Shown piece by piece: positions 18,900-62,790 of a stretch of 64,000 nt of DNA. Each line of letters begins with the position of its first letter. Position 1 is the stretch's first letter. The notes under the pieces were generated by a model. The model was not told the DNA's origin. It made no database searches and worked only from the letters and a program-made list of their open reading frames with translations. A program made the translations under genes and the position numbers. Source of the stretch: Clavelina lepadiformis (lineage: Eukaryota); assembly GCF_947623445.1 (NCBI RefSeq), contig NC_135246.1, forward strand, positions 19,028,288-19,092,287. The letters are read 5' to 3'.

Positions 18900-19800
18900 C
18901 CAGCCGGGATATTAAACGAGCGGTGAAGTGAAGAAAGCGCGTATTGTAATATTTCGTCAAGAAAATTTTACGCTTATGGTCTTTATATATTGCAACAATT
19001 TTTAAAATGCTGGATCGGTGCAAGCGCTCTTGTGCTACCGTGGCATCAAAACGAAATGCAGTGAGCTTACAAGGAAACTTTCATCAAAGACGAAGCAAGA
19101 AGCTAAAGGAAATGTTTCCGAATTAAAAAAAAGTTTCTGATATAATTTATGCGCGGTTATTTGCATTACTAGTAACAAGTCAGCCATTGCTTACTTAGAA
19201 CATTGCACATAATTCTGGCCAAAATCGTGGTAAATGGCAATATTGCAGCATTCTACTAAATTGCACTGTTATGTTTGAAAAATAATATGAAAAAATAAAT
19301 AAACTCGAAGAAAGCAATTCTTTTAGGACGTGGCAAATATGGTAAAAATGTAGAAGAAATTGTTATTTCAGCTAGAAAGTGCTAGTTGCTAATTGCAATT
19401 TTAACAAAAAACGTGGTGCAAGATCATATAGTAATGAGGTCATTTTACAAAAATACATTTCACAAACTTTTAAAATTAAACAAAACTTAAAGGATGAAAT
19501 CAAAATCAGGACCTTGATCAAAAAAATAGAACACAAAATTCGAGTGCTGTCTTAATGCGAAGCAGAAACAAAAATCCATGATGTGTTTGAAGTATGATGT
19601 TAATTCCACAACTGAAACGTAATAATTGAAAAGCATTGCCTGCCAGTTTTCCAAAGTAAAACTAAAATTTGTAAATTGTGACTTAAATGGGAAATGAAGA
19701 ACTGGACAAAATAGCAAACTCTGATATGGGGGAAATTAACACGTTGGATGGAAAAGACTTTTCGTATATTGATTGAACACAAATTTTAAATAAATAATGT
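18900..19800 (+). repeat. Outer segment of the left palindrome arm. It is the inverted copy of 61700-62790.
   Basis: 19018-19150 is near-identical to the reverse complement of 62541-62680 (tgcaagcgctcttgtgctac[c/g]gtggcatcaaaacgaaatgcagtgagcttacaaggaaactttcatcaaagacgaagcaagaagc...). 19260-19330 matches the reverse complement of 62200-62300. Confidence 0.6.
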
Positions 19801-20097
19801 TGTGTGAAGATGTAAGAGGCAAGAGAGGAGATACATAGTAAGAACTTCTACATGGTAAGAAAACTTAACTGGCGTAAGTACTTCATCTAAAACTTAAAAC
19901 AGTCATTTTGTGTTAAGTAAAACCTATCTGCGGTTAAATCTCTATTCAAGTAACGCAACATTTTATGAAACGCTTTTACAAAATGAAATGTTATTGTTGT
20001 GACTTGTGATGTTATTCAAGTTATTTTACCTCTTCACTATCTTTAACTTGAAATAAGGAAACTGTGACATTGACCAACTGACCTTCGTTGTCCTCGA

Positions 20098-21284
20098 TTA
20101 ATCCACTTCTTCCAGAATGTCTTCCTCGAACTCTTCATCGCTATCTATTTCATAGATCCCAAAATGTTGTGTTCGATATGCCAAATCTTGTTTTTCCTTG
20201 GCATCGTCTTCTTCGTGTTCCATTAGACTGCATAAAAGACAACATACAAAAGATAACTTCAATGAAGAATTTGTCGTATTTTGCTACTACCAGTCCGTGT
20301 TTTGGATGCAGACAAGTGCTTGCTACTGTACTTAAATCTAATGCTGTACTTCAACTTTTCAAAAGTTATTTAGTGTAATTTGCTTTGTCATTAGATTAAA
20401 ATTTTCAATTGACCATTTGGTTTACATAGACAGGTATTTGTGCAGTTATATACAGACATGTATGCTACACATTTCCAAGAACTTACTGAAGTAAAAGGTG
20501 ACCAATTCGATTACCATCTCCTTTGTTTGCGAAACTTAAACAATGTTCGAATGTCATATCTACAAATACATAAATTTAACTCAACCAAGGTTCTGTATAA
20601 GCTTATTGATATTATTAATTAATATACTTGCACCTACTATCATATCTTGTGTATTTCAGGCTATGACTTTCTAGATTGAAGAACTCCATACAAGAATATT
20701 GAACTGGTTCAAACAAACTCTTTTGATTCAATGGGTTCAGTACAATGAACCCATAGTAGGGACGAACATAGCTGACCAAAAATGAGCGAGTCATGAAATC
20801 GGCTCATGCAAGCTATGATAGACGTTTAAGCAGCAAAATAGAATATAAAATCCGTTAAAAAATAAAATAATATTACACAAAACGGTAATGAGCTTGGCTT
20901 ACCTTGAATACACAAATAACGTCCCCTCTGCGATTAATTCCTCCTAAAATAATTGAAATTTGTTTCAATAATATAGAGAATAGATTATTATTAACTGCTG
21001 GAATAACTACACGCAAACGCTGTTACACCTACACCAGTTCTTTCTAGAAAAAGTAAAACTAGGCTAAACTTTATAAAAGTACAGATAGTGTCATTGCCAT
21101 AAATTGTGAAACATGTAAAAAATTCAACAATAAAGAAAATACACAAGCAACATACCGTTTGTGTATTTAAATTGTGCTTGTAAGCTTCCACTTGACTTGC
21201 AAAATCTATGATGTGTGAAATAAATGGATTATGACGGCGAAGTGTTCTCAAAATAACGTTCTTTTCCATTTCAGAAAACATCAT
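20098..21284 (-). CDS. DCP1-like EVH1-domain protein paralogue P5, 5 exons, ~168 aa. It mirrors P4.
   Basis: Exons on the minus strand are 21156-21284 (MMFSEMEKNVILRTLRRHNPFISHIIDFASQVEAYKHNLNTQT|gtatgt), 20903-20943, 20638-20771 (S YVRPYYGFIVLNPLNQKSLFEPVQYSCMEFFNLESHSLKYTRYD), 20487-20559 (NMTFEHCLSFANKGDGNRIGHLLL) and 20098-20227 (terminal, ...DLAYRTQHFGIYEIDSDEEFEEDILEEVD*). The GT-AG introns share phases with P1-P4. Exon 2 (GGINRRGDVICVFK) has lost the canonical GTLFVY motif, so this may be an early pseudogene. Confidence 0.5.
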
Positions 21285-22040
21285 GAAAAATAGTTTGCAC
21301 AGATATGCAGTAAATCTGGTATTTTAATCGCGAGCAATATTATACATATGCACTGCACAAAGAAATTTGTGAAAGTAAAGAACATCTTTTAGACAGATTT
21401 ACTTTTCAACTGCAATCACTGTACAGGACAACTGCTTTTATAGGGCAGTCATCTTATTAAAACAAAGGGATTGTCTACTAGAAAAAAATTACAAGCAAAA
21501 AAGAACTTGAAACCATGGCTCAAAAGCAGTCAATGACGAGATCAACACAGGTTAAAAGTTGTAAGTTGGTAAACGATGCACAATGTGTGAAAAATTCAAC
21601 AGTATACACAAGCAGCATACCCTTTATGCGTTTAAAATGCAGATATAAGCTTTAACTTGTTTGGAAGAATCTATGATGTGTGAAATGTATGAATTATGAC
21701 GCCGAAGTATTCTCAAAACAACGTTCTTTTCCATTTCAGAAAAAAATGGAAATTATTTTGCACGGATATGCAGTAAACCTGGTATTTTAATCGCGAGCAA
21801 TCATATACACAAACATTGCAAAAAGAAATCTGTTAAAGTAAAGCACATCTCTTAGACAGACTTACTTTTCAACTGCAGTCATTCTACAGGACAACTGCTT
21901 TTATTGGGCTTCCATCTTATTAAAAAAAGGGATTGTCTAATGCAAGATATTACAAAGCAAAAAAATTTGAAACCATGTCTCAAAAAGTAATCAATGATGA
22001 AATCAACACAGGTTCAAAGTTGTGACTTGATTGGTGATAG
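21100..22040. repeat. Local tandem duplication with a ~480-bp period and two copies. It contains the P5 exon 1 and a second exon-1 copy.
   Basis: 21100-21560 matches 21580-22040 with ~85-90% identity read by eye (gtgaaa[c/a]atgtaaaaaattcaaca..., gtaaagaacatcttttagacagatttacttttcaactgca...). Confidence 0.6.
21639..21755 (-). pseudogene. Extra P4/P5-type exon-1 copy with an in-frame stop
   Basis: The minus strand encodes MEKNVVLRILRRHNSYISHIIDSSKQVKAYICILNA*. A TAA precedes the donor gggtatgctgc. Confidence 0.45.
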
Positions 22041-22079
22041 CACCATATTCCAAGCATAAACTTTTTCGTTAAAGATAAA

Positions 22080-22652
22080 TGGCCATTCTTTGGTAAGAGT
22101 TTCAGTAATGCACCACTGCTAATTTCCGGTTAACTGAATGAAAAGCTTTCTTTCATGAACCTTTTAACTTTGCCTTGATCTTTGATGGTTTACTTATGCG
22201 TCTCCTGCAAATCCAAAGATATTCCCAACTTCTAATTTCTTTTCTTATCACAGTTTCCAGCCTGTACTTGAGTTGCTTGGTCAATGACTTATGTCCACCA
22301 CCCAAAACCACTCCATCGCAAAAGTCCTCAATTGGCTGAGGAAACTTTGATATAACTTTGTACGATATTAGCCGTAAATCTCTAAGTGATAGTTTTTTGC
22401 AACTTTCATTACATCTTCAATAATAACCCTAACCATATACGGTATAGCTGCCAGATCTGGCATCAGGCCTTTGTCAGAAGTTTGGTTTAAAATGATTGGA
22501 AACTTGTTACAGGGATATTGAAATCCAGCTGGCCATGAGTATGACTGATAGCTCACTGATGAAGTCGACGCTTTCATACTAGTGCTGTCTTTTTCCATAA
22601 CTTCACATTTTCCTGCCACCTGAACTGTAGCAGCTAAAATTTGGAAAATCAT
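22080..22652 (-). pseudogene. Frameshifted coding remnant, probably transposon-derived
   Basis: The 94-aa ORF 22368-22652 (...ILNQTSDKGLMPDLAAIPYMVRVIIEDVMKVAKNYHLEIYG*) is continued in another frame at 22080-22370 (ISYKVISKFPQPIEDFCDGVVLGGGHKSLTKQLKYRLETVIRKEI...). There are no splice signals at the junction. Confidence 0.25.
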
Positions 22653-24033
22653 TCAAATTCATTACTGCACAGGATTTTATTTTACAACAAAGGTCACAAA
22701 TGACTAAACTCAATATGACTTCCAAGCTCTTATAAGCTTTCTTGCTTAAATAGGTTTGATAATGGAAGTGATGTCTGACTCTTGAACTTCAGATAGGTCG
22801 GCTTCCTCTTCTACTCCTATATCTTCTAAACATTTCAATAACTCTACCAATTTAAGTACGCTAAACCCAGGTAAAATTTTGCTTATGGACTGCCCTATCA
22901 CTTTCAAAAGAAAATAGCAATCAGTTGAAAGTATACAGTATCATAAATGTAACTTGATAAATGCTGTACAAATCATATTTCAACACTAACGTATACCTTT
23001 TACAGCCTGTGAGTGCCAATTTAGATAAAGCAGTATGACGTAAAGTAAGAAGCTTGCAACCATTAAGATTATAAGCAATCGAAAGATAGCCTAATAGTTA
23101 TAAAAATCGGAAATAAGCACAAACATACTCTCTATGCGCTTCTGCACTACATAAACCCCCAAGGAAAGCAAGAAACGTAACAGACGTTTTTCTACACCGA
23201 TTTATCAATAATTAACCATAACTTAAGCTTTCAACGCACCACGCATGTCTTCGCCCGAAAATGTGTTTCAGCACATACAATTTCGTTAAAAACTGTTATA
23301 GTATGACCTGTAAGCCTATACTGGGAACAGTACTGGTGTAGTGGGAAATAGTCACCCCTGCCAAATATTGAACTCCCTCTGTGACGTAATGAATTCATTG
23401 TCTGATAAAGGATTTGACTCAGCAGAAAACGTACCATTATTCTATGGCTGAATAGTGTAATATAGTAACTTTTGTGAATGCATGTATACTGGAAAACAAA
23501 ATACCCTATACACTGTATACAGGTTACATTTGTTGGCCTACTTCTGTCAGTAAGTTCTGTAGGCTACTTGTGTATAGACTTGTCACGGTTACGTCAAGAG
23601 TCACGACTTGTTTTGTCGATGCTGGAATTTTATTTCGGGATCTTGTAATTCAGTTGTTGACCAAACTTAAATTCTCTGTAATGACGTTCAGATAAATTAC
23701 CTCGCTTGAACTGGTGTGCCACATATATATACTGTTGTAATGTTTACAACTTCCTTTTTACACTTTACTCTGTCACTTGTTACTACCGCGCAATGTTACA
23801 TTCAGTAAGCTTTACTCGAAGGTGAAAGCCTTTGTGTCTGATAATAAATAAAATGGGAACTTTATAATTTAGTAATTTATATAGACAGAATTAAGCAACT
23901 AACAGCATAATCACGCCGTTTGAGAAATGATAACTCATATCATCAAAGCAGAAGCAAAACAAGTTATCAACCATCAATCGTCCTCGCTCATATTGCAACA
24001 ATAGCCGCCAGTGTACGCGGTCTTTATGGCGAA

Positions 24034-24419
24034 CACCGTATTTTCTTGAATAGAAACCGCCCTTGAATAGAAGCCGCCCTCGAATAGAAACCGCACGATT
24101 TGATTAAAAATAAACAATAGAAGCCGCTTTCGCATAGAAACAGCAGAAGACAATGCTGAAATCGCTTCGGTATAATATAAAGGCTGTCATTGAGAGCTCG
24201 CACATGCGAAAAACAGCAGTTGTCACATTGTAGTAGTGATCGGATAGTAGTCAAAAGAGAGCGCAGAATTTTAATGTCACCTAATCCACACTACCGGTAC
24301 TTCATGTAATAAATATAGAAGCTGCCTTCGAATAGAAGCCGCCCTCGAATAGAAGCCGCACAAAACCTTCAAAAATAAAAAATAGTTGCCGCGGTTTCTA
24401 TTCAAGAAAACACGGTATG
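24034..24419. mobile_element. MITE-like element, ~385 bp, with ~28-bp TIRs and subterminal (GAATAGAARCCGCC)n repeats
   Basis: Left end reads CACCGTATTTTCTTGAATAGAAACCGC. Right end reads GCGGTTTCTATTCAAGAAAACACGGTATG, which is its reverse complement. Subterminal tandem gaatagaagccgcc motifs sit at both ends. Confidence 0.35.
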
Positions 24420-25189
24420 TTTGTTGTATAATACTTCGCACAAGTAATACAGCAACGAAATCTGTATTTGTCGTAAGCTTTTTGGGTGTTGAATGAATGA
24501 ATTTATTACGTCACAAAGAGGGGTCACTATTTGGCACGACTCCGGTACCTCCGATCCAAAACTCTTAACTCTCATAACTAGGCCTAAATTAAACTGAAAG
24601 TAAATTTTAACAAAAACAAAGATACGAAACAATCGTTGCTACCTCAGCAAATACGTCACGTGAATCGTCACAGCAAATAAGTCACATGAATCTGTCAGAA
24701 TACGTCAGACGTAGTTGGTACCGGTATACCGCAGCTTAGCATAATCCGCCACAACTTGATTCATGAATCAAATTGACTATTTCACCGGCGTCCTTTCACC
24801 AGAATTGCAGTTTGTGTACATCACAATGATGACTCGAACAATCAAGGATGATTCCAAACGAAACTTAAACACGTGATTAAAAAACAAGTATCAGTTTTTA
24901 GTTGTGCATGTTGCCCATGCTTGATCAGTACACTAAAGCAAAAAGTAAAAAGTCAAACCCATAGGCCTACTTACCCACCTGAAGTGAATAATGCGAAATG
25001 TGCCTCGCAAACAAGCAAGCTATATATTATGTAGCTTACAGTTGAAAACGTTACAAACACAAATACGTTAAAATATCCAAAAACGTAGAACTACAAAACA
25101 TACATTTGTGTTTTGAATCATTGGTAGACCCATGTATTTGATTATAATAATATATAATATAATAATTATTATAGCACAACACCTTACAC

Positions 25190-25930
25190 ATTATGAAACT
25201 TGTATATTATATGTACTAGAGTAACTAGACTATTTAGGGAGAACCACTTGTCCATGCTCCCGGCACAAACTCTATTTTTAGGAGCCATAAACGATTTTAT
25301 GTTTTCGATTTTCCTTTCGTTGCATTTTCTTGTTTGCGACTCCTTATCGGTTACAACCATTACAATATAAAGTTCTGGGAAATCTCCAGACAACATTTTT
25401 TCAAAACAATTGCAATAGTCAAAACATAATGGTCGGAACGTCAAACATGGCAGGTTGCTTGTTGTTATCGTTGTCAAGTGATGTGAGCTGATTCTAACCA
25501 CCAACTTTCATGAAAACAATATGCGCATTGCAGTTGTTAATAAGGAGCTGTTTTTTTGTTTTATCGAGTTGTAAAAATAAACTTAAATAATTTCCATGTT
25601 TCAAAACGTATCTGTTGAGAAGGAATATGTCACAATCTTATTATGACGTAAGTAAAATTTGGGTGAGTGTCCTGGCTTCGACGAAGTTCAGGAGTAAAAC
25701 AATGTGCGTGATAACTAGTCGAATATTTTGGGATCATAAAAGTTTTTACGTCTTTATTCTTTATTTGCTAAAACCGTGGCAATATTAAGTGTTGTGAGTC
25801 ACTGACAGCATTGTTATAACACCATGACTCTAGTCGAGATGAACTGATGGTGATCAAACATAGCAGGTTGCTTGTCGATCTGGTTGTCAGCCATTGAACG
25901 AAATGTTTCCATGATCTACTTCTAACAAAA
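25190..25930 (-). repeat. Inverted-duplication segment, the partner of 55150-56310
   Basis: ORF 25184-25504(-) and ORF 56105-56308(+) encode near-identical peptides (MLSGDFPELYIVMVVTD[K/E]ESQTRKCNERKIENIKS...). 25560-25760 matches the reverse complement of 55660-55970. 25790-25930 matches the reverse complement of 55150-55260. Confidence 0.6.
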
Positions 25931-27244
25931 CAAACTTCGCATTGTATTTCTTGATGCGGAGTTGATTGTTATTATTTGGAAAACCGAGCTGCAAAAGCAA
26001 ATTTAGATCATACGTGGTTTACAAGATAGTGAATGAGGGGAAATATGTCACAAAACCCGAGTACGGTTGTGTGCGGTTACGGCTCCTATCTGCGAAACCA
26101 TATAGACCTCAAGCTTAATTTATCAGAAAAATTATCTACTCCTTGCAAAACACATGGTAGAAAGATTATATAGCGTTTCAAAATTATCGCATTTGGTGTT
26201 TCAATATTGAGGTCCATAAAGTGTCAAACTTTACGTCTGGGTTCTTCGAATAAAGGCGACTTTTTTGAAGAAAAGACGTTAAGGTAATGCTCAAAACTGA
26301 TCAGACAAAGCCAACAAAGCAATTGGGGAAAGTTGCATTTCTGCGAAGCAAGCCGCTGGTGAGGTGTGATGTTGTAAACATTCTTTATCTACTGACTTCC
26401 TGCTTACAAAAACTTTTATGAAAGAAAAGTCGCAAGTTTATCAGAGTTTGAAGCCGATGTCACTGATAGACTTGTTGTTGTTGATGTTGCAAATTGTGAT
26501 CTGGAAACACTTTTAGTTGAAGAGTAGCAGCATATTATTGTATTAGAAGTTAATGATTTATTTACTGCATTTAGCCAGTGATGACGATTTGCAAATCCAG
26601 TTAATGAGAAATAGTTCTAAAGTAACAAGCGAATAAATGATATGATGTATTCAGTCTGCGCTATCGTTTTCTGTGCCTATACGTCGTACAAAAGAAACCA
26701 AAACCGGTTGAATTATATTTGTATTTGCCGCTAAAACGCGTTCAAGACAAACTTCACAGATGTACAGCAAATATATATAGACATCTCAATGAACTACAAA
26801 TGAACATTAAACAACTAAAATATATACGAATATAAAATAATATGTCACTTATAAACACGCTATTAGTTTTTATTAAACGGTGAACAACAAGTTAATAGCA
26901 GAAACCGGTTTCATAGTCTTACTGGCTGCTCCAGCATTTATCTTCATGGTGATAATATAAAAAGAAAAAAGATAGAACGACAAGTTGTAATGATTGTACC
27001 ATATCAACGCTTAAGAACGCTTGGAACCACGGTTTGCTGTTAGTGAAACTACAGTTTCTAACTTAAATATAAGCGTATTATGCAACAGTTACCTTCAATT
27101 ACACTCAGCTATGAATGAAATACATGCACCCAGGAAAGTTACTTAATTTCGACAATTTAACAGTTCTTGAAACGCTGCCTGATAGAAGCTGATTGTTTAT
27201 AAAAATATTTTATCAGAAAAATTAATGATCACAGCGATCTTATA

Positions 27245-28551
27245 TTAGGCCATATTCTCCTCCGAAGCAACATCGCTTAACTCCTCATCATCACTGCTCT
27301 CTGATGATGAATAAGTGCTGCAGGGAAAGTCCGGAGGATTCTCCAACTCTTTCCACACACTGTGAAAAAAGTGCAAAATTCAGTTTTAATAACAAGTCTT
27401 CCAATTCCATTTGTCTGAATTTTGATGGAAATTTATTGCATAATGACGTGCAGTAACTTATAATTAAAGAACAGTGTTATATACTTGTTGCCTATATGTT
27501 ATATATATATTGATTTATCAGCATATATAGCACAAATAGAAATATTAGATTAGATATTTATTAGATAGCACTTTGTAATTATCGCTTATTTTTAAATGCT
27601 CAACACAAGCTAAGCTAAAACAATAGAAATAACTGTTAAGATGCATAATGCTATCCAGAATCTTGCTTTTTACTTCACTGTATTCTCATTATATACTGGG
27701 CTCACATGATTCAGCTTTCATAAATTTTGGAATATTCTTTCTGTTACAGGCTTACAATTATATATATAAATGTAACTTGTAAACGTTAAGAAACTGTAAC
27801 TTACTCCTTCAACAGATTTCCCATGCATATGCAGTCGAAATAATCTTGAAACATTAGGCCGTAAGTTGCTGCAAATAATTAATTAAAATTAAATTAAAAT
27901 TTTTCATAGGTTACTACAAAACAACTATAACAAGGGCACTAACATCCATAGTACTTGTAAGTTAAAAAACAATGTTCGGCGATCATCTCGGCGCTAGGCG
28001 TGTTGGGTTCCGTGAGGTCTTTCGGGGAAAGTTTGTTAATAATAACATGGCCAGGTTTGAAAGGATAAGAACTGTTAAAACATAAAAGCGTACGCGTCAA
28101 AACCTTAATAACAAATATAATGCAAATTTTTAAACAATCATAATAAGAACAAGTAAATCTATAAAGAAAGAAAATGATTTGACTTACCGTGAATAAACAA
28201 ATAATGTTCCTTTCATTTCAAGATATTCCTTAAAAAATAGAAATTTATCTTTAATGATTAATTTAATTTTTGTAAAATGAGTTACGTAAAAAACTGTAAA
28301 ATCAGTAACAGTTATTTGCAGTAAAAGGCACAGTTGGAATTTCAAAACAACTTAGCTGTAGTTGTAAGAAGTTGAAATTAGTGCAATTTTCTCAAGATTT
28401 CCGAACGTTGCAAACGACTTACCCATTCTTCACTTTCCTCATCAAGACGATAAACCGCCACTTGATTAGCATAACCCAAGATATTTGAAATGTGAGGGAT
28501 GTCAGCCAGAAGTGCGTTCAAATTGATTAACATTTCAATGTTCGACTCCAT
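27245..28551 (-). CDS. DCP1-like EVH1-domain protein paralogue P1, 5 exons, 158 aa
   Basis: Exons on the minus strand are 28423-28551 (MESNIEMLINLNALLADIPHISNILGYANQVAVYRLDEESEEW|gtaagt), 28188-28228 (EYLEMKGTLFVYS), 27944-28071, 27805-27868 (..YGLMFQDYFDCICMGNLLKE) and 27245-27359 (DVWKELENPPDFPCSTYSSSESSDDEELSDVASEENMA*). All introns are GT-AG. The protein aligns with the DCP1 EVH1 consensus (NL.aL...DPyIt.I.d.a.QVAlY.F......We + IEGTLFVYrR + ..GF.I.N.l + DC..i). Confidence 0.7.
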
Positions 28552-29167
28552 TTTAGCAAGTTTATAATTACTCTGATAAGCAAAATATTTTAATCGCGAA
28601 AGATAATGCAAAGTTGCAGCTTACTATAAACCCTGGCAAAAAACGAATTGAAAAGTAATGGTTAGACTTTAGACTAGACTATAACGTCATTTCGTTGCTT
28701 GGCACTATACCGTCAACTAGCATCTAAGCCTGATTAAAAATTTTTGCTCAACATTGCGTCATGTTTTCTTTACTTTACCAGGCATTGCATCAAGCAATGT
28801 AACTTTACACAGAAGCAAACTGCTGAAAATTACGCAGAGTACAAATACACTGCAAAAAAATCTTTTAAAGTAAAGCACATCCCTTAGACAGACTTACTTT
28901 TCAAATGCAGTCACTCTACAGGACAACTGCTTTTATAGGGCAGTCATCTTATTAAAACAAAGGGATTGTTTACAAGAAAAAATTTCAAGCAAGAAAAAGA
29001 ATTTGAAACCATGTCTCCAAAGTAATCAAGGACGAAATGAACGCAGGTTCAAAGTTGTGAATTGGTAAACATTGCCCAATCTTGGTTAGCACCTGTGCAC
29101 CTGTTGTTCTGAGACAAGGAATTTTCTTTGAAAGACTCGCGCCATTTACAACTTAGAATAAGACCGT

Positions 29168-29400
29168 TTAGTAATCCAACAGCGTTTTAGAGTGAAACCA
29201 GGAGGAAATTATGTGCGAGTTCGATAACAACATGCAACGATTTGCATCAACAGATAAGTCACTGAACGTAAGTGCGAATTGGATAAGATGAGATTGAAGT
29301 GTTTGGTTCTTACACAACCGGTGGCGAAAGTGTATGAGAAATATAAGTACTGTAGTCTGAGCAATACAACTTGTTCGCATGTCAAATGTGAATATACGAA
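29168..29400 (-). repeat. Family-2 dispersed repeat, ~230 bp. This is copy 1 of 3.
   Basis: ORF 29168-29380(-), ORF 57500-57760(+) and the sequence at 46900-47110 share ...HRLCKNQTLHFHLIQFALTFSDLS[IV]DANRCMLLSNSHIISSW... at the nucleotide level. Confidence 0.5.
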
Positions 29401-29779
29401 AACCATTCTTTTTTCAAAAGGTAACTCAAACGGTTTAACCCATTTTGCCCTGGTTTGGGTCCAATGGACCCAATGGAGCGTGTTTTAAAATTTCATTAGC
29501 TGCTTCATTGATTAGACCTGCAGGTTCTTATTACAAGTTTGTAATGTTAATGTTAGATAAAATTGCAGTAAATTAAATTGCATTGCCTACCATTTCACAA
29601 AGGCAAATAAATAACTTCTCCGTAATCGGGGACGTATTTGATCAACTTTTTGCAGTAATAACAATTACTCATGTAGTTACCTGTTTGTGTTGTCTGCGTC
29701 ATATACTGCAAGTAGGCTAAAGCAAGATCTCAGCAAAAAAAAAATAGGCTAATATAGGTTTCCTAAAATATGCTTTTTC

Positions 29780-45199: not shown

Positions 45200-45204
45200 A
45201 TATA

Positions 45205-47934: not shown

Positions 47935-48061
47935 GTCTAGTCTATATTCTATCTATTACCTTTCAATTCGTTTTTGTCAGGGTTTATAGTAAGTTGCAAC
48001 TTTGCATTATCTTTCGCGATTAAATTTTTTTGTTTATCAGAGTAATTATCAACTTGCTAAA

Positions 48062-50381: not shown

Positions 50382-50726
50382 CAGGCTTGTCCATGGGACA
50401 TTTTTTTCTGTCCCATCCCATCCTATCCCATAGCAATTCATGCCTGTCCCATCCCATCCCATCCCAATGTCCCATCTCATTTAAAATTGGCAGGTTAGAA
50501 TGAAGCTATGACATTTTCGGGCAGATATTATTTTTTAGATTTACATTTTCGGATAGATATATTAAATTAAAATCGATTTCACCCACAAAATGGCTTCAAA
50601 CAATAACCTCTGTACTGGTTCCCATGTCCCATGGGAATTGCAATTCGTGCTGTTCCATCCCATCCCCTCCCATGGGACATTTCCCATGGGATTCCCGTGG
50701 GAATCCCATTCCCATGGACAAGCCTG
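50382..50726. mobile_element. MITE, 345 bp, with ~19-bp TIRs and an internal (CCCATCC)n microsatellite
   Basis: The TIRs are CAGGCTTGTCCATGGGACA... and ...TCCCATGGACAAGCCTG. The flanks are gagatttta / gagatttat, an imperfect 8-9-bp TSD. Internal cccatcccatcc runs and cccatggga palindromes are present. Confidence 0.5.
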
Positions 50727-52129: not shown

Positions 52130-52490
52130 CTGAGTTGACATCAGACGACTCTGTAAATAAAGAAATTAACAAACTCGCAGCTTGATAACAATAGAAGGTT
52201 TCCTGCTGGTTTTATCTATTCACTGCGGGACGTTAATCAGTTTGCAACTTAGACTTCGGTTCAAGCATCTCTTTTTTCATCGTTTCCCTTCTTGTACCGT
52301 ATGAATTCATCAAGTTGCAAAATAATCATGCATTTGCGATTGAGAAAGGTGAGCGTTAAGATCTGCTTTTTCAACACATTTGTCTATTCATAGTAACTAC
52401 CAGCAATTTACTTCTGTGCTAAGTTACCTTGCATGATCCATTGCTTAGTATAGCGTAGAAAAACTTGACGCAATGAATGACTTCAGATTT
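52130..52490 (+). repeat. Partner of 13404-13760. It covers -580 to -220 relative to the P3 ATG.
   Basis: See the partner feature. Confidence 0.6.
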
Positions 52491-52707
52491 ATAGTAGATC
52501 GATCAGTCAAGTTTTGGTGCCTGATAGTAGTGAAATGTTGTCTGATGAGATGATGCTCTATAGCTTAGTCAACCATCTTACTTGAATTTGTATTTACCCA
52601 TAAACACATAAGGCCTTTTTTTACTTTCTTTAATTCACACGATTGCATTATTGCTCACAATTGACTTGTTCTTTATAGGTCAGTGTTAAATAGCAGCTTG
52701 GTACATA

Positions 52708-53949
52708 ATGGCGTTCGAAGGTGAAGTAGAAGTTAATTTGAAAGCACTTCTTCGCGAAGATCAAAGCGTTTCGGACATCCTTGATTCTGCAAATCCAGTT
52801 GCAGTTTATATTTTCAATGATGAAAGCAAAGAATGGGTATGTTGTTGGTATAAACTTAAGTAATCATTTCTAACTATGGTTTTAACTTAATCACTTATTT
52901 TAACTTTTCCGAGACTGCTAAATTATGCTGCAATTTTGTTCGATTCGTTTTGGTAGCTTGGATGATTGAGATTACAAAGTTACAACTTTTTAATAAGTTT
53001 TATGCCCTCCTTTGCTTCCGAGCACAAAAGATTCCCAATAAGATGTATTATTTAGTTCTACTACAATGGAATCTTATATTAAAATAAACTTTTTGTATTT
53101 TTAAGGAGAACATTGAAATGGAGGGAACGATATTCGTTCATAAACGGTAAGCCAAACTTATTAACTTACCTTATTGCTTAGTGTTCTTTAAATCTTGTTC
53201 CGTTTAATCAATATTTCGCATTATGCAGTAGTATATCCCGAGTACTTTAAGGATGTAGGGCACATAATTTTGCAATTTCTAATTTGACTTTTCAGTTGTG
53301 TGTTGCTGTAGGTTGTGAAATATTAAAAGTGTTTTTTGTCTGTTCTTTAATCTTGTTCTGTTTGTTCAGCATTCTACATAATACAGATAATTTTACCACA
53401 ATTTATGACATAAATTCTTTCAAGTTTTGACATTATGCATCGCCCTACATTTGGCTTCACCATCATGAACCAAGAGAGTTTGGATAATTGGAGCCAAACT
53501 CTCTATCCTGGTTTGGAGTTTCTTGAATACTCACCGTTCCTGGTGACCAGAAATACTAAATGTAAGTGCATTCAATGTGATCGATTATACCGTAGTAGTA
53601 GCCTAAGTTGAGAATGCATTGGACAATAGGATTTTATGTTTTATATGTTTCAGCAATGGGCTTCGGCTTGAAATTTGAAAACATGGTCGATTGCAGACGC
53701 ATGGGATATCTTCTAAACGAGTAAGTATTAGCTTCATTATAAAGATGCACATAAACTTATACATATTACTATGAAACACCAAGTGGTAACATTATGAACA
53801 AACGCTGATTTAATGATAAAAAAAATCAAAGCAAATATTACTGGGCAATATTTTTGCGATTTTTTTTACAGTCTTTGCAAATAGATAGAATGGACCATGA
53901 AGGCTCTCCCATTGAAGGACTAAATGAAATTGTTAAACTAAAGGATTAA
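52708..53949 (+). CDS. DCP1-like EVH1-domain protein paralogue P3, 5 exons. The terminal exon is ambiguous.
   Basis: The exons are 52708-52836 (MAFEGEVEVNLKALLREDQSVSDILDSANPVAVYIFNDESKEW|gtatgt), 53106-53146 (ENIEMEGTIFVHK), 53425-53561 (R FDIMHRPTFGFTIMNQESLDNWSQTLYPGLEFLEYSPFLVTRNTK) and 53654-53720 (SMGFGLKFENMVDCRRMGYLLN). The last exon is either 53872-53884 (DLCK*, stronger acceptor ttttttttacag) or 53889-53949 (EMDHEGSPIEGLNEIVKLKD*, acidic tail like other paralogues). P3 is the closest to the DCP1 consensus, with HGFTIVNRL matched by FGFTIMNQE. Confidence 0.65.
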
Positions 53950-55149
53950 ATTTTATGATTTTTTTTAATTAAAATGTTTTGTATTTATATTTTGTGATTT
54001 CCAAGTTCAGTGTTGTTTTATTGTTGGCTGTTTATTTAAAACTAGCAACTGATTAAAAATGTTGCCTTTTATATTAAGTTTGAATTTTTATGTTTTTCGT
54101 ATTTTGTACCCGTATATATATTTGTTTTTGGATTATGTTTTATATTAAACATAGAAATAAATAAATGTATTTTGTAAATTTTCTGCTGCATTTATACGCA
54201 TTTCGAAATATCAGACGATTTTATTGTCTCCAGCACAATGCAATTGTAAGCATAAAGTCGAGATGTTTTCAAAATCTTTTTAAATATCAATGTGTCACTT
54301 ATAAATGATGGGAACCATTTTTGCAGTTGGGAACAAGCATTTACGAAAGTAACCGCATGTAAAGGAAGTATATATTTCACAACTATTTTCACTATTATTC
54401 AGTTCGTATTAAAGCTAGACAACCTGCTTATATCGGGAAGATATATCCAGTGGTTTTCAGATTTTTAAATATATCAAATTCCAAATCTTTCATATGTGTG
54501 TCATCAAAAAAGACACTCTTTCGCTATCACAAAAGTATACCAATACCAAATATTGTTTTAATATTTCCTTCCAGTATTACATCGCTTTTAATTTTTAAAC
54601 ATGATGTTTAGATATCACATATTTCTATTCACTGCCACCACTAACTCATAGGTGTCATATTAGCGCATTGATTATGATCACGCATTATGCTTTTGGATGG
54701 TTTCTTATGTTTGCATCGATGGTGTGTTTTTGCGAAAACCTGCAACCTCAAGCAATCGTTGCGTTTTGAGCGTGTTAATTATTCCTATGTCTGTTGTGCA
54801 TGGTAAGTAAATTACAATTTGTTCCAAGTTTGAGTGAGCGACCGAACGGATGTTTTGGTACATCCTTGTTTTTATGTTCGCTTAAGTTGTGCCTCTCATA
54901 GTGTTTCAATTATTTTTGTTTCTGATTTTATGACGATTGCTCACCACAATTAAATCAAACAATTTCAGCCTAACGTAACGCTCAGGCCGTTACTCAAGAG
55001 TGTTCCTGGAAGTCTAAGGTGACAAAAACTGCACGTCACATATGCACTCATCGAACTCAAAAATCTAAACAATTTGCTTTAGCGGCTCGGTTTTACAGTA
55101 ATACCAAACTCCACATCAACAAATCCAAAGTGTGATTTGTTTTCTTAGA

Positions 55150-56310
55150 ATTAGATCATGGAAACATTTCGTTCAATGGTTGACACCCAGATCGACAAGC
55201 AACCTGCTATGTTTGATCACCATCAGTCCATTATTGTCTCGACTAGGGTCATTGTGTTATAAAACTTATAACAATGCTGTTAGTGACTCACAACACCTAA
55301 TAGTGCGATGATTTTAGCCAGAAAGGCGTTCACAAACACAAAACTGCGAAAGACATTTTTTATAAAACATTAAAAAGTTATTTTGCTTCATCATCACACT
55401 TGCAGGACACTATGTGAGAATTGTAATCATGCAGTATGTAAATCTGCACTCCAGCACCAAGCACTCTCGTATATTTTATTGCACTATACACTTATTTTTC
55501 TCTATATTATGTAGGCCTATATGTTTTCAATTGTATTCCACTAATAGATGTTCGCTGGCTTTAAATCACATTCTGTTATTGAGTGCGGGCAGCATGTAGT
55601 AATGCTGGTTAACTGTAATCATATTGACGAGGTTTCACAGAATTTTTAATACAATGTAAATCAATACAGTGTAAATCTTAGATACTGTGTAATTTTAACC
55701 ATAAAGAGTTCATAAACAAGAACCTGCGATACACGAACAACAATAAAGACGTAAAAACTTTTATGACCCCAAAATATTCGACTATTTATCACGCACATTG
55801 TTTGTTTCTTGAACTTCGTCGAAGCCAGGATACTCACCCAACTTGTACTAACGTCATAATAAGTTTGTGACATATTTCTTCTCAACAGATACGTTTTTGA
55901 AACATGGAAATGATTTAAGTTTATTTTTACAACCCGATTAAACAAAAAACGGATTCTTATTAACAATTGCAATGCGCATATTGCTCTTTTGAAAGTTGGT
56001 CGTTAGAATCAGCTCACATCGCTTGACAACGAGAACAACAAGCAACCTGCCATGTTTGACGATCAGACCATTGTGTTCTTGATTATTGCAATTGCTTTGA
56101 AAACATGCTTTCTGGAGATTTCCCAGAACTTTATATTGTAATGGTTGTAACCGATGAGGAGTCGCAAACAAGAAAATGTAACGAACGGAAAATCGAAAAC
56201 ATAAAATCGCTTATGGCTCCTAAAAATAGAGTTTGTGCCGGGAGCATGGACAAGTGGTTCTCCCTAAAAAGTCAAGTGCATAAGATGTATAAGTTTCATA
56301 ATGTGTAAGG
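55150..56310 (+). repeat. Inverted-duplication segment, the partner of 25190-25930. It has ~400 bp of extra internal sequence.
   Basis: See the partner feature. The order of sub-blocks is reversed, as expected for a mirror copy. Confidence 0.6.
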
Positions 56311-57509
56311 TGTTGTACTAAAATAATCAGATAATCGGTCTATCAACAATTCAAAACACATTGCAAAATGCACTGGCTACTGTGACGATAAGTATGTTTT
56401 GTAGTTCTACACTTTAGTGTATTTTAACATATTTGTGTTTTTAACGTTTTCAACTGTACATAATACATAGCTTGCATGTTTGCGAGGCACATTTCGCATT
56501 ATTCACTTCAGGTGGGTAAGTATGGGTTTGACGTTTTGCTTCTCGCTTTAATGTACTGATATAGCGCTGGTAACTTGCACAACTAAAAACTTACATTTCT
56601 TTTTAATCACGTGTTTAATTTTCCTTTGGAGTCATCATCGCGATGAACACGATTGTGACGAATCTCCTTCCCGCGCCTCAAGCCCGAGGCAAGGAGCGCG
56701 TTTTGTCACAAATCTTATTTAGGTTTTTGTACCTTGTTCTGGTTTTGATTTGCCTTGGAGTTAACTTCAGTGACGGCTATAACAATTGTGACAAGTGATC
56801 GAATCGAGGGATCCTGCAAATAAGGTGGTTGTACGAAAACTAAAAGAAACTTGCTTTTATTCTGATTATAAATCGAGGCATTTGGGAAGTTGTAGGTTTG
56901 GTTTTCAGAGACGAGCAGCAGCTATAAGAGTGGGGAGTTTTCTGGATAGAACACTTTAACGTGACACTACTTTAACATAAAAAAGTATTGTTAATATTAA
57001 AAATTATTAAAAGTAAATAAGTAAGTAAGTATTAAAAGTATTAAAAAGTATTCAAGTTATTGCTGAGAGATAGTAAAATTCAGTGCAAAAGTAGCTCCAT
57101 GAGCAAGTCGATAGAAATTTTACTGACAAAATAGTTCATCATATTCTACCTGGGCTTCTTAATATACAGAGGTGGGCAGTCGGTACTTTGAAAGTACCGT
57201 CGGTAATGGTAACGGCAAAAAATGTACCGACGGTTCCAGAATTCGGCAATATCTTGAAAAAGTAGTTTGATACTTTGTCGGTACTCGGTACCGGTACTTT
57301 TTGTATAAAAGATGCTGCTGCAAATGCAGTGTTTGCCACTATTATGTCCCTGTAAAGTTTAGTCCAGGTCAAAAAAAATGAGACGTTAATCGCTTGCAAA
57401 TTTTCTTTGACATTTTTAGATTAAAAAAGATCAACAGATGCTAAAATTGGTATTAAGGATTAATTAACATATATTTTTAAAAACATACTTGTCAAAATTT
57501 TGAAATTAT

Positions 57510-57740
57510 CTTTTGCATATTCAAGGTTGACATGCAAACAAGTCATATTGCTCAGACTAGTTATTTTTCTCACATTGTTTCCCCACCGGTTGTGTAAGAA
57601 CCAAACACTTCATTTTCATCTCATCCAATTCGCACTTACGTTCAGTGACTTATCTATTGATGCCAATCGTTGCATGTTGTTATCGAACTCGCACATAATT
57701 TCCTCTTGGTATCAATCTAAAACGCTGCTCGATTTGTACA
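57510..57740 (+). repeat. Family-2 repeat, third copy
   Basis: As above. Confidence 0.5.
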
Positions 57741-58758
57741 GTGTAAAAGATATTCGTTAGTTTTACGTGAAAATGTCTGTAATAATTTACAGTTGCGTAC
57801 GTTTTCTTAGTTTAACCCTGTTTTGAAGTTTACCTGATTTTCTAGTATTTTCATTTCCATGCGATTGCCGAAGTCCCACAACCAATGATTTGTTTGATAA
57901 TATCACGTGACCTTCCAGTAGTCACTTTGAATATATTTTTTCCAATTAAGGATGTTGTGTGCGTTCTGTCAAGTTGACCTAGGCTAGCTGTTGCTAGCAG
58001 GCAAGGGTCATGGGTTGTAAATGATACAATGCACGATATATAGTTATATATATATAGGCTAGAAGTATACTTTCTGCTGGTTATGATAACGCACGGGAAG
58101 CATCAGCTCAGCAAAATTTATTTGATACGCGTAATGGCCAACGTTGGAGTTTGTATGCTAGAGGGTTCGATTCTTGCCGTTGTTTAATTTCTTTCTTTTT
58201 GTTAAAATTTATTTTGAATTTAACATAGGCCTATAGTCATGAGCAGGGTTTTTTTTAAGGTTTGGTTTGGGTGACCGCTAAGTAGTTTTAAGAGACCGCA
58301 AGTGTGTCATTTAAATACCAAAAAAAGTAGTAGTAAGTTGCAAGTCCAAATTTTGGGAAACCGCTGGAGAAATTTGGGGGACCGTTTCGGTCCCTCAAAA
58401 CACCTTAAAAAAAAACACTGGTCATGAGAGATGAAAGTTTGGATCGTAGGTACCGGTGTCGTGCCAAATAGTGACCCCCATTTGTGACGTAAGAAATCGA
58501 TTCATTCGACACCGAATAAGCTCTATACACAAGTAGCCTACAGAACTTTTTGACAGAAGTAGTCCAACACCTGTGACCTGTATAGGGTATTTTTTTTGCT
58601 GCTGTGCTGTAGAATGACTAAATAAGTAAGTCTATTTAAGGGATCTGCTTTACTTTAACAAATTTCTTTTTGCAGTGTTTATGTATAAGATTGCTCGCGA
58701 TTAAAACACCAGCTTTACTGCATATACCTACAAAATAATTCTTCTAATTTTCTCTGAA

Positions 58759-61108
58759 ATGGAAATGAATGAAATTGTATTGAGAATACTTCGTCGTCAT
58801 AATTCATACATTTCACACATCTTAGATTCTTCCAAACAAGTTGAAGCTTATATGTGCAATATAAACGCAAACAGGGTATGTTGCTTGTGTATATTGTTGA
58901 ATTTTTCACACATTTCCCATTTTGTGGTTTAGTCTACTTTTAATTTTTCTACAAAGACCTGTTGTTACTTTAATAGCTTTCGTTTGTAATTATTCCACCA
59001 TTTATCAATCTATATTCTATAATCTATAGTATTGAAACAGATTCTAATTTTTTAGGGAGAATTCATCATAAGGGGAACGTTATTTGTTTATTCAAGGTAA
59101 GCCAAGCTCAATACCGTATTGTGTAACCTCATCTTATTTCACTGTTGGATTTTATATTCTGTTTTGCTTCTTAAACGTCTACAATAGCTTTTCTAAGCCT
59201 GGGTTCCTGACTCGCTCATTGTTGTACAGCTACGTTCCAGCCTACTATGGGTTCATAATATTGGACCCATTGCAACTGTGCAGCTTGTGTGAACCGGTTT
59301 GTTATTCGAGCGTAGAGGTCAACGAACGCGAAAGTGGTCTTCTAAAATACGCAAGATATGACTGTAGGTTCAAGTATATTAGTTAGTAATATCAATAAGC
59401 TTACGCAGAACGTTGAGCTACTTAAGATTATCTATTTGCAGGTCCGTTTTACGTTCATCTTTTAAACTTCGCCAGTGTGGAAGAATGTGACCGAATCGGA
59501 CAACTTCTAGTTGAGTAAGTTCTTGTATGTGTATATAGCGTATTCGGAGGGGGCATTGGGCCATGGCTCCCATCACTACCCCAAGTTTTTTGGGGTCCAT
59601 AGGCGTTTTTGCGTCTTAAGCTTCTTCGTTTATCGTATTTTTGAGACTCCTTTCGACTTTGACCGAAAAGCGTTGCAATTACAAATACACAAAGCTCCCT
59701 CTTAATTGCGTTCCCTTTTAGAAGAAACACACAGACCAAATGTTTGCAATAAAAGCCACAGAAGCAGGTATAAATATTTTATTAAGAAGGCGCGAAAAAG
59801 GTTTCGAACAACATTCGTTCTTTATCGAAGCTGGAATAAATTATAGGAGTTGAATTATCGATTTAAGTACTCCACAATGTTATATTAAAGTAAGAAGAGA
59901 ATAAAATAAGTAGATAAGAAATATGAGCCAACAACGTGCAGAAGTAAACGATAATGTCAGGAAAACAATGAGTCTGCAACGATTCGTGGAACATGGTAGT
60001 TAAACAAAACGGACATGCAAAGCAGTAAACCGCATGGTGCAGACATGTCGGAATATTGTGTTTGGGCTCTAGTAAATTTTTAGTCCCACATGTTTTACGG
60101 CGCCGCTGGCACGAAAATTTATTTATCGTTTGTTTCAAATCGCCATTGTTATCGCTTTGTCAGGGAGAAAAGTTATTTATAAAGGGTTTTTTTGCAGATA
60201 GCAACATTTCAGTTCCAGTACAGTGAAGTCGATCATAAAGCAGGAAGGGAAGTTTATTTTTCAGAATCAAAAAAGCAGAAAGTTTTGTTAGTTTCCGAAA
60301 CGACCAAGGTTGTAAGCGGCGATGTAACAGAAAAGAATCACAGTAACGTTCCCTGTTTTTGTAAAAAAAATACCAATGTTTGTCGGACGCAGAGCCGCCA
60401 TTTGACATTGCACGTGCCATTGTCACTCCTTTGTTAGATGACCGAAAGCGTTTTGTGATAAGTGTTTTTATAAAAAGACATTGTGTGCATATTTTGAGGT
60501 GACCTTGACTTTAGTAGAAATGACATATCGCGAGAGTAATTAGAAAACTACAATTTATTTCCAGGCGTTTTTAAGCGGTGTTTTGACGAAAAAATATAAT
60601 TTTTGCGCTCCACGAATTTTGGCGGAACGGACGTACGCGTGAGTTTTAAACCTAGTACTAAAACGTTTTGGTCCTCCATAAACGTCATCCAAAATACGCT
60701 ACTGTACATGGCTGTATGTAACTGTAGCCTGCATGAATCAGTTTCTATCAGCATATTTTTATGTAAAAAAAGGGTAGTAACCTTGAAACCAAATGCTCAA
60801 CTGAAAATGTTAACATAATTGGCAAAGCGAATTGCACCAATTAACTTTTGAATAATTGACATAAAGCATTAGATATAAGCACAGTAGCAAGCGTTTGTCT
60901 GCATCAGAAACACGGACTGGTAGTGGCAAAAAAACGACAAACTCTTCATTGCACTTAATCTTTTGTACGTTTGTGCAGTCTAATGCAAGATGAAGAGCAA
61001 GATGTCTATGAAAAACAAGATTTGGCATATCGAACACGGAATTTTAGGATCTATGAAGTACATAGCGATGATGAGTTCGAGTATGAATTACTACAACAAG
61101 TGGATTAA
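58759..61108 (+). CDS. DCP1-like EVH1-domain protein paralogue P4, 5 exons, 164 aa. It mirrors P5.
   Basis: The exons are 58759-58875 (MEMNEIVLRILRRHNSYISHILDSSKQVEAYMCNINANR|gtatgt), 59056-59096 (GEFIIRGTLFVYS), 59230-59363 (S YVPAYYGFIILDPLQLCSLCEPVCYSSVEVNERESGLLKYARYD), 59442-59514 (CPFYVHLLNFASVEECDRIGQLLVE) and terminal 60979-61108 (DLMQDEEQDVYEKQDLAYRTRNFRIYEVHSDDEFEYELLQQVD*). Intron 4 is ~1.46 kb. The ORF-track entry 59084-59386 is intron read-through into exon 3. Confidence 0.6.
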
Positions 61109-61699
61109 ACGAGGACAACAAAGGTCAGTTGGTCAATGTCACAGTTTCGTTATTTCACCTTCAAGATTGTTACCATGTGTTATGAATGTGAACAAGTAAA
61201 ATAACGTTAATAACATCACAATAATGACATTCCATTTTGCAAAAGCGTTTCATAAAATGTTACTTTACGGTTTACTTCAATAGATATTTAACTGAAATTA
61301 GGTTTTACTTGACACAAAATGACTGGATGGTTTTGTTTAGAGCTGGGAGAAATTGATTCTTTCCATTAGAGGCGCAATGTAAATATATTTCATAATTTTA
61401 TTCACATGTTGTATGTGCAGTGTGACATCGTCACATTTTAGGTTTAGGTTCTTGATACGAGATACTTAAATTTCTTGCAATGTATCTAGTTTAGTTTTCT
61501 TTTTAACTTTTCTTTTAAGACTTTGTGCTTTCCCATAGCTTATCTACTTATTCATAAATGTGGGTTGGGTAAAGTATTTGGAGTAAAAGATTAATGTCAT
61601 TTGTTTAATCGCAATTAAAATAACAGCGTGATTGTGGCAACCTCTGCCTGGTGTAATATTGTGATGGTGATCACCTCTTGACACAACATTATTCATTTA

Positions 61700-62790
61700 A
61701 AATTTGTGTTCAATCAATTAATATGCGAAAAGTCTTTTCCATCCAACGTGTTAATTTCCCCCGTATCAGAGTTTGCTATTTCGTCCAGTTTTAAACTTCC
61801 ATTTAAATCGCAATTTACAAATTTCAATTTTACTTTGGAAAACTGGCAGGCACATTGTTAATGGTTTTCAATTATTACTTTTCAGTTGTGTATTAACATC
61901 ATATTTCAAACACTTCAAGAAATGAAGAACTTTAACTCTTGTTTAGGCTTCGCACAATGACAGCACAACGTATATCTGCATCAGCATGGCATAACTGATT
62001 GCAAACCTGTGCATATATTTTATCCGTTTGCATCAACGTATCTGCCCGAATTTTGTGTTCTATTTTTGTGAACCGGCGTCTTAAGATGTTTTATCAAGTT
62101 CGTGACTTTGAGATTATTATAAAAGTCGTATTTACTTCGAATTTACATAACTATATTCTCCTACGCATCGTTTTTTTGCCAAAATTTGCCATAAGCCACC
62201 AGTAGTGTCAAGTCCATATCGGAATTTATTTCTACATTTTTACCATATTTGCCACGTCCTAAAAGAGTTGCTTTGTTCGAGTTTGATTTTTTCAAATAAA
62301 ATAATTTTTGAATACGTGTGTGTAATTGAGCATCTTGTTATCAGCAGACGCAGATATCTACAGTAATAAGTTCTTTTACCTTTACTTTGCAGGCTTTGTA
62401 TCTGATCTGGAATAATCACTGATCTTTATAAACACTGTGGGGATAATCCGGCAATGCCACGATTTTGGCCAGAATTATGCGCAATATTTTAAGTAAGCAA
62501 GAGCGCAGAATGAGGGAGACTTGTTACTAGAAATGCAAATAACTGCGCATAAATTATATCAGAAACTTTTTTTTAATTCGGAAACATTTCCTTTAGCTTC
62601 TTGCTTCGTCTTTGATGAAAGTTTCCTTGTAAGCTCACTGCATTTCGTTTTGATGCCACCGTAGCACAAGAGCGCTTGCACCGATCCAGCATTTTGAAAA
62701 TTGTTGCAATATATAAAGACCATAAGCGTACATGTTTCTTTAAAAATATTACAATACGCGCTTTTTCCACTTCACCATGACTTATTCGCT
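61700..62790 (-). repeat. Outer segment of the right palindrome arm. It is the inverted copy of 18900-19800.
   Basis: See 18900-19800. ORF 62573-62770(-) lies in the block matching 18936-19133(+). Confidence 0.6.

Follow-up and report, generated by a model that had tools for sequence, protein, structure and literature searches.

We analyzed a 64,000-nucleotide stretch of chromosome 7 of 9 of the tunicate Clavelina lepadiformis, taken from the Darwin Tree of Life PacBio HiFi/hifiasm assembly of a Plymouth animal (PMC10884593), and refer to this whole stretch as the window. The window (36% G+C, no Ns) holds a gene for an EH-domain/dynamin-like ATPase (EHD) and, on either side of it, an arm carrying DCP1-like genes, the two arms being mirror images of each other. 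The five DCP1-like genes are called P1 to P5, and the blocks at the outer ends of the left and right arms are called X and X'. For comparison we used a public assembly independent of the window, GCA_961645235.1 (contig CAUIVY010000123.1), which we infer to be the Banyuls HiFi/hifiasm assembly of PMC10950049; both are hifiasm assemblies of HiFi reads and come from different individuals (PMC10884593; PMC10950049). Loci of this second assembly are designated L001 (left arm and EHD), L002 and L005 (right-arm equivalents) and L006 (outer copy of the duplicated cassette).

Self-BLAST of the window followed by chaining aligned the two arms in 12 collinear inverted blocks (Table 1), a long anti-diagonal series of the kind that a dot-plot displays. 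All 27 between-arm matches were on the minus strand, and no match was obtained with the right arm reversed but not complemented or with 20 shuffles. The mirror series X, P5, conserved block, P1, family-2 and family-A, which a preliminary description of the window had read from the sequence, was borne out by these results, and the arms, put there at ~12-17 kb, measured 11.9 kb on the left and 17.0 kb on the right. The same description ascribed the greater length of the right arm to P3 and to miniature inverted-repeat transposable elements (MITEs), and we indeed traced it to the P3 segment (50,090-55,071) and a MITE (47,635-47,935), with a longer P4 intron adding to it. "Family-2" is a 5' flank common to the P genes (21,343-21,584, 28,840-29,080, 47,219-47,469, and 57,498-57,738), and "family-A" includes a relic resembling a tail exon at 45,590-45,958, with its left-side counterpart at 30,442-31,158. 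In the type II genes, an acidic tail exon falls within the block at 19.9-20.4 kb and 60.7-61.4 kb. In the second assembly, the order was DCP1, DCP1, DCP1, EHD, DCP1, DCP1, with orientations as in the window and collinearity at 92-99%; EHD faces the same arm in both, and no inversion polymorphism was seen between the two assemblies.

The identity of the arms proved lower than the ~90% proposed in the preliminary description. It averaged 79.7% over 8,030 aligned columns, with a range of 69-91% among blocks, and only the outermost block (321 columns) reached 90.7%. In 100-column intervals (n = 694) the median was 82%; 30 of the 694 were at or above 95% and 6 at or above 99%, all 6 of them within one island of ~200 bp. 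A segmental duplication is conventionally defined as at least 1 kb long and at least 90% identical. Collinear genes and non-repetitive noncoding blocks, reproduced in the second assembly, make the arms an inverted segmental duplication in the broad sense, and their blocks of more than 1 kb, at only 79-83%, fall short of that definition. The arms are an ancient duplication below the standard segmental-duplication threshold.

Table 1. Features of the mirror locus and its surroundings (positions in the window).
Feature	Position	Strand or orientation	Description
Left arm (cassette copy U_L1)	18922..30807		X, tail-exon block B, P5, conserved block, P1, family-2, family-A; from the chain, content matching L001
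Right arm (cassette copy U_R)	45763..62776		Mirrors the left arm and additionally has P3 and further insertions; L002 and L005 are collinear with it at 92-98%
Arm block	18922-19230 / 62776-62457	inverted	Chaining
Arm block	19256-19813 / 62330-61673	inverted	Chaining
Arm block	19900-20423 / 61325-60786	inverted	Chaining
Arm block	20466-21426 / 59533-58602	inverted	Chaining
Arm block	24476-24632 / 58522-58180	inverted	Chaining
Arm block	24847-25761 / 56636-55739	inverted	Chaining
Arm block	25767-26003 / 55318-55071	inverted	Chaining
Arm block	26293-26865 / 50090-49503	inverted	Chaining
Arm block	27111-28679 / 49474-47935	inverted	Chaining
Arm block	28672-30427 / 47635-45943	inverted	Chaining
Arm block	30612-30807 / 45958-45763	inverted	Chaining
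P5	20098..21284	-	DCP1-like type II, 168 aa, 5 exons, intact; exact match to XP_076820711.1 and CAK8671214.1; Pfam DCP1 55.5 bits; manual model
P1	27245..28551	-	DCP1-like type I, 158 aa, 5 exons, intact; identical to P0002 / XP_076820256.1; Pfam DCP1 68.2 bits
P2	48062..49333	+	DCP1-like type I, 157 aa, 5 exons, intact; identical to XP_076820072.1; mirror partner of P1
P3	52708..53884	+	DCP1-like, 128 aa, 5 exons, intact; within the right-arm-only segment; identical to XP_076820241.1; Pfam DCP1 85.3 bits
P4	58759..61108	+	DCP1-like type II, 164 aa, 5 exons, intact, tail exon in block B; identical to P0123 / XP_076820141.1; mirror partner of P5
Spacer	30808..45762		Holds EHD, polymorphic insert and most of the young tandem duplication
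EHD (EH-domain/dynamin-like ATPase)	33981..40100	+	Pfam EHD_N, Dynamin_N, DUF5600, EH; also a gene call in L001/L002
Young tandem duplication	39505..46628	+	39,505-42,750 and 42,767-46,628, 97% identical, 16-nt junction filler
Conversion tract, X'	62531..62731 (minimum 62,553-62,723)		Right-arm X' overwritten by left-arm X, donor 18,968-19,168; four-way alignment
Conversion tract site, P2	47934..48403 (window equivalent)		Tract in second assembly, L002 9,873-10,329; donor equivalent 28,680-28,223
Inner remnant of third cassette copy (U_L2)	13402..14402	-	Block 13,402-13,764, 87.5% to P3-upstream 52,486-52,133
Type II P-gene relic, inner edge of left arm	30442..31158	-	Tail-exon-like and exon-1-like pieces; matches 19902-20423, 21012-21149, 60737-61412
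Tandem duplicate of P5 exon 1 and 5' flank	21586..22029	-	21114-21568 versus 21586-22029, 82.7%; stop codon in exon copy (LNA*R)
MITE private to window right arm	47635..47935		Inverted termini CAGGGGCGGGCAAC...GTTGCCCACCCCTG, 8-bp target duplication GTCTAGTC; read from sequence

The P gene models have canonical GT-AG introns, and their RefSeq counterparts are named mRNA-decapping enzyme 1A/1B-like. The Pfam DCP1 domain (PF06058) was matched by all five at 40.8-85.3 bits against a cut-off of 22.5, across profile positions 2-116 of 117. The proteins consist of the EVH1 domain only, stopping 5-50 residues past it with no further Pfam domain. A P-family profile (P1, P4, P0001, P0124, and P0125), built from second-assembly and RefSeq homologues, found the EVH1 domain of human DCP1A (4B6H) as the best solved structure (E = 4e-23). 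A profile of the family, searched against 1.84 billion representative proteins, gave three matches below 1e-30, all from Clavelina, followed near 1e-23 by canonical DCP1 proteins of 400-670 aa; no close relatives outside Clavelina were found in that search. In metazoan DCP1, a C-terminal extension and a trimerization domain are needed to bind DCP2 and EDC4, and residues N71 and R72 of the NR-loop are described as invariant (PMC4005699). The P proteins resemble canonical metazoan DCP1A/DCP1B in their full-length DCP1-type EVH1 domain, but they are only 128-168 aa long, have neither the long C-terminal extension nor the trimerization domain, and thus fall outside canonical metazoan DCP1. Furthermore, the NR-loop positions read NK, NK, NQ, DP, and NP in P1 to P5, the arginine being replaced in five of five (K, K, Q, P, and P), and the tryptophan (W43) at the end of exon 1 in P1-P3 is missing from P4/P5, the type II pair.

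The mirror partners were each other's closest relatives within the window. Nonsynonymous (dN) and synonymous (dS) divergence amounted to 0.057 and 0.36 for P1-P2 (omega 0.16) and to 0.286 and 0.575 for P4-P5 (omega 0.50), with dS above 1.2 or saturated for the pairs that are not mirror partners. It follows that the paralogues in the cassette had already diverged before its duplication. The two assemblies differ by 1-4%, against a dS of 0.36-0.58 between mirror genes, and the duplication is therefore far older than the split of the two sequenced haplotypes. The right-only segment 50,090-55,071, which holds P3, corresponds to 290 bp of the left arm; P3 predates the duplication, and a deletion is therefore the best reading of its absence there. 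P3 was most likely lost from the left arm, and its insertion on the right is the less likely alternative. Synteny, which the preliminary description proposed to examine, could be followed on the upstream side only. The two closest EHD loci retrieved, L003 and L004, share the EHD exon structure with Clavelina, EHD exon 1 being 83-85% identical, and a DCP1-like exon was absent from the 10 kb that precede EHD (both loci end before the 3' end of EHD); Clavelina P1 sits 5.4 kb upstream of EHD.

The spacer contains EHD, as had been described, and its size, given earlier as ~14 kb, was 15 kb in the window and ~11.5 kb in the second assembly. The spacer of the window includes a 3.3-kb tandem duplication and a 1.8-kb insert, both missing from the second assembly. 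The former copies the EHD 3' end together with family-A, stretches of which only one copy exists in the second assembly; it is probably polymorphic, an assembly error being the less likely explanation. The latter, segment 36,136-37,919, lies in an EHD intron and contains a 243-aa open reading frame (ORF; 36,465-37,196). Eight coding exons of EHD were located (33,981-39,605), and the position of its 3' end near 40,100 comes from the 556-aa model of the second assembly, mapped onto the window. EHD had been called single-copy, which holds for the intact gene; a second copy of the final 34 residues encoded by its EH-domain exon lies at 42,766-42,867. As regards the uniqueness of the spacer, only three short plus-strand matches (405 nt) link the left arm with 30.8-39.5 kb.

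The mirror pair belongs to a three-copy cluster and is not a simple two-arm palindrome. In the second assembly another DCP1-like protein, P0125, was mapped on the outer side of the left arm, ~36 kb away. Locus L006 starts with the far end of an array of serine transfer RNA (tRNA-Ser) genes, and its segment 5,190-11,338 is collinear with the right arm at 52,481-61,239. This segment contains the blocks of 54.2-55.1 and 55.7-56.6 kb, family-2 and, with its tail exon, the type II gene P0125, as well as a P3-like pseudogene that has ATA in place of the ATG and is frameshifted. The L006 cassette has the same orientation as the left arm, that is, direct, and is about as diverged from the arms as they are from each other. 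Its inner remnant lies in the window at the near end of the array, where a P3-upstream block (Table 1) is followed by a DCP1-like pseudogene with stop codons (13,838-14,402). Since P3-upstream sequence stands at the near end of the array and L006 at the far end, the array interrupts the third cassette at the equivalent of 52,481-52,486, ~225 bp upstream of the P3-like start codon. Jukes-Cantor distances among the three copies were 0.10-0.15 for the shared block, 0.28-0.30 for the type II gene and 0.14-0.20 for the tail block. X is common to the left and right arms only, and P3 to the right arm and the outer copy only.

The array itself occupies positions 1-13406 of the window with 5.8 copies of a 2,309-bp unit that are 99.99% identical, and it runs on past the left edge of the window. 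Each unit has four minus-strand tRNA-Ser genes (anticodons AGA, CGA, CGA, and TGA), giving 24 in the window; an Rfam search over the whole window matched this array only and nothing in the arms. The tail exon of the P0125 locus (L006 11080-11214) and that of P5 (20227-20098) share 93% protein identity, with ~74% for the rest of the two genes, which may come from conversion between the direct left-side copies or from strong constraint.

Gene conversion between the arms was sought in a four-way alignment of both arms from both assemblies, using assembled sequences with one haplotype per assembly, and two tracts were detected. In the X' tract, the right arm of the window equals the left arm of both assemblies, and the right arm of the second assembly keeps 15 private sites. 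There were 15 private sites and 0 fixed arm differences inside the tract versus 6 and 64 outside (Fisher p = 3e-12). This tract is the island of 98-100% identity, ~200 bp long with a 115-bp exact run, and it is the only one above 99% that the sliding-interval search suggested in the preliminary description brought out. The other tract is at P2, where the second assembly carries P1 sequence over at least 457 bp, from 128 bp of promoter through exon 1 and intron 1 into the beginning of exon 2. Inside it, the second-assembly P2 is 97.2-97.4% identical to P1 and 91.7% to the P2 of the window, as against 86% and 97.8% downstream; site counts were 31 versus 3 inside and 13 versus 130 outside (p = 6.5e-21). 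Sequence of right-arm type on both sides of each tract marks them as conversion patches and not crossovers.

In both tracts the left arm was the donor, and each was seen in one assembly only, X' in the window and P2 in the second assembly. Arm-to-arm conversion thus occurs as a short and occasional process that does not homogenise the arms, whose homology is too low for conversion to be keeping them alike. The earlier wording that conversion is "weak or ancient" came near the truth but was incomplete, as it left out these two short tracts, each confined to one assembly. GC-biased conversion gave no clear signal in the tracts, with AT-to-GC versus GC-to-AT changes of 4 versus 6 and 16 versus 8. 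The part of the P2 alignment upstream of the tract (columns 66-290) was rejected as converted, being an alignment artefact of a MITE private to the window, and the tract was limited to 47,934-48,403. We also considered other origins for the X island. As a structured RNA it had only a chance-level match in a permissive Rfam search, and its folding was no better than that of shuffles on either strand (z = +0.8 and +0.9); as a conserved exon it offered a 38-codon ORF whose ATG the second assembly lacks. Both were discarded, and conversion was preferred.

An ancient inverted segmental duplication of a DCP1-like cassette around EHD, within a three-copy cluster, accounts best for these observations, with a probability of roughly 0.85 in our estimate. 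The structure, the genes and the conversion tracts could be read directly from the assembled sequences, as could the recurrence of the arrangement in the second assembly; the order of events is our reconstruction. A cassette of at least roughly 12 kb would have held P3 together with a type II and a type I gene, all diverged DCP1-like genes coding for EVH1 only, along with their flanks. It would have come to flank EHD on both sides in mirror orientation, for example by replication template switching or by break repair at short inverted repeats, and this mirror orientation would explain why transcription of every P gene leads away from EHD. The copies would then have diverged to ~80%, gaining MITEs and other insertions, with P3 most likely lost from the left arm. 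In the window haplotype, the 3.3-kb tandem duplication would have arisen at the border of spacer and right arm. Short (0.2-0.5 kb) non-reciprocal conversion from the left arm to the right still takes place occasionally.

Several points weigh against this interpretation. Only ~8 kb of the 11.9-kb and 17.0-kb arms could be aligned, and the age of the duplication was gauged within C. lepadiformis only. Each conversion tract is supported by assembled sequence from a single haplotype per assembly, so that a local consensus error is formally possible; that both assemblies are HiFi-only argues against artefacts of short-read polishing. In addition, the three cassette copies are nearly equidistant, and the left arm and the outer left copy are not distinguished as the true sister of the right arm. 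It is accordingly possible, with clearly lower probability, that the outer left cassette was the source of the right arm and that the left arm arose later, as a direct duplicate from which P3 was lost. The presence of P3 and of the 54.2-55.1 kb block in the right arm and L006 only points in this direction, as do the Jukes-Cantor distances of the shared block, 0.10-0.12 between the right arm and L006 versus 0.13-0.15 between right and left. However, X is common to the left and right arms only, the two left-side copies are the closest pair for the type II gene and block B, and the differences are small and blurred by conversion.

More distant explanations find far less support than the ancient inverted duplication. 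The preliminary description compared the locus with the palindromes of sex chromosomes, and an amplicon of that type, with arms kept alike by frequent conversion, would fit the inverted arms of more than 10 kb that house a multi-copy gene family, the unique spacer between them and the two real conversion tracts. Yet the arms are 79.7% identical against the defining >99% (10.1101/800185; PMC8981503), only 6 of 694 intervals attain 99%, in a single ~200-bp island, mirror-gene dS is 0.36-0.58, and both tracts are short and found in one assembly each. The gonad of C. lepadiformis holds both ovary and testis (PMC10950049), and no sex chromosome is therefore expected in this hermaphrodite host. The comparison thus fails on the defining feature of those palindromes, and we consider a true amplicon very unlikely. 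That the mirror arose by chance, DCP1-like genes or dispersed repeats having undergone separate tandem expansions to the left and to the right of EHD, is slightly more improbable still: P-gene flanks (family-2 and block B) do recur several times within each arm and MITEs are common locally, but noncoding blocks found once per arm in the window (X; 24.8-26.0 kb; 26.3-26.9 kb) share the order and orientation of the genes, the mirror genes are mutually closest within the window, and the arms contain no Pfam transposase domain. The least probable account, with hardly any weight left to it, is an assembly artefact, whether from a wrongly joined inversion or from two haplotypes laid out next to each other. 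The two copies of the tandem duplication are 97% alike, near the divergence between the assemblies, and the second assembly has one copy; this duplication nevertheless has a defined junction with a 16-nt filler. Arms ~80% identical are far below the 95-99% found between assemblies and cannot be haplotypes set side by side, the window has no Ns, and the inverted layout recurs in the independent HiFi assembly of another individual, which refutes an artefact for the arms.

Palindromes of the mammalian X and Y chromosomes are kept at an arm identity above 99% by frequent conversion, are sex-chromosomal and often carry testis-biased genes (10.1101/800185; PMC8327919; PMC8981503; PMC3723533). The Clavelina locus shares with them (human Y P1-P8; primate and mouse X) a unique spacer between inverted arms of more than 10 kb, a multi-copy protein-coding family in these arms and arm-to-arm conversion, and differs in its arm identity of ~80%, in tracts of 0.2-0.5 kb present in one assembly each and in its hermaphrodite host. 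Among the marks of a sex-chromosome-type palindrome, inverted arms above 8-10 kb, a unique spacer and ongoing conversion are present and an identity above 99% is absent. Autosomal inverted low-copy repeats, which surround unique sequence and are able to mediate inversions, are similar in that inverted paralogous blocks flank a single-copy gene and ectopic conversion takes place between paralogs. Repeats that drive recurrent inversions are usually highly identical; the identity of the Clavelina arms is too low by comparison, and EHD has the same orientation in both assemblies. Ectopic conversion in clustered gene families likewise produces short patches between paralogs 15-20% diverged, here with one over a promoter and exon 1. 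The classic examples are mostly direct tandem repeats, whereas donor and acceptor in Clavelina are inverted and 19-43 kb apart.

The locus is a fairly ordinary old inverted duplication and leaves the general picture unchanged. It does provide a clean and independently confirmed case of an inverted duplication long after conversion ceased to homogenise its arms, with arms decayed to ~80% identity, genes still intact and short conversion patches that differ between two individuals, and may thereby serve as a reference point for the decay of palindromes. The lineage-specific expansion of truncated DCP1-like genes in a tunicate is of possible interest for mRNA-decay research. Judging from the missing trimerization domain and NR-loop arginine, the P proteins might be decoys or modulators of decapping and not activators, forming a Clavelina-restricted, fast-evolving EVH1-only family that the mirror cluster and the conversion of promoter and exon 1 would diversify or keep expressed, a functional analogue of ampliconic families off sex chromosomes; we regard this idea as speculative and rather improbable.

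Among all ORFs of at least 55 aa in 18.5-64 kb, Pfam matched DCP1 in the arms and the EHD domains in the spacer only. The ORFs at 14,972-15,631, 36,465-37,196, 25,184-25,504, and 50,846-51,301 had no Pfam match. An impression that two of the Pfam-negative ORFs were derived from transposases found no support. The type II relic at the inner edge of the left arm has right-side counterparts at 45,590-45,958 and, as a tandem copy, at 41,709-42,063.

Several indels are explained by MITEs with 8-bp target duplications. The MITE at 47,635-47,935 is missing from L002 and from both left arms, and others lie at L002 9,276-9,605 and L001 9,362-9,661 with the target duplication GTCTAAGG. These insertions in the window, L002 and L001 are short and noncoding, with terminal inverted repeats and 8-bp target-site duplications, as is typical of MITEs, and their ends are what we take to be hAT-like. 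In the second assembly, two different MITEs, with differing terminal repeats and the same 8-bp target GTCTAAGG, occupy the homologous site in both arms. At that site the left arm of the window (28882-28889) has a clean empty site, and the right arm (47416-47419) reads GTCTAAG-CC-CTAAGG, which resembles an excision footprint.

The intergenic block 24847-25761, which has no gene call and whose longest ORF has no Pfam match, is 85.5% identical to its counterpart 56636-55739. The third cassette copy also has this block (88%), and its core is 96-97% identical between the arms in both assemblies, with a peak at 25232-25330.

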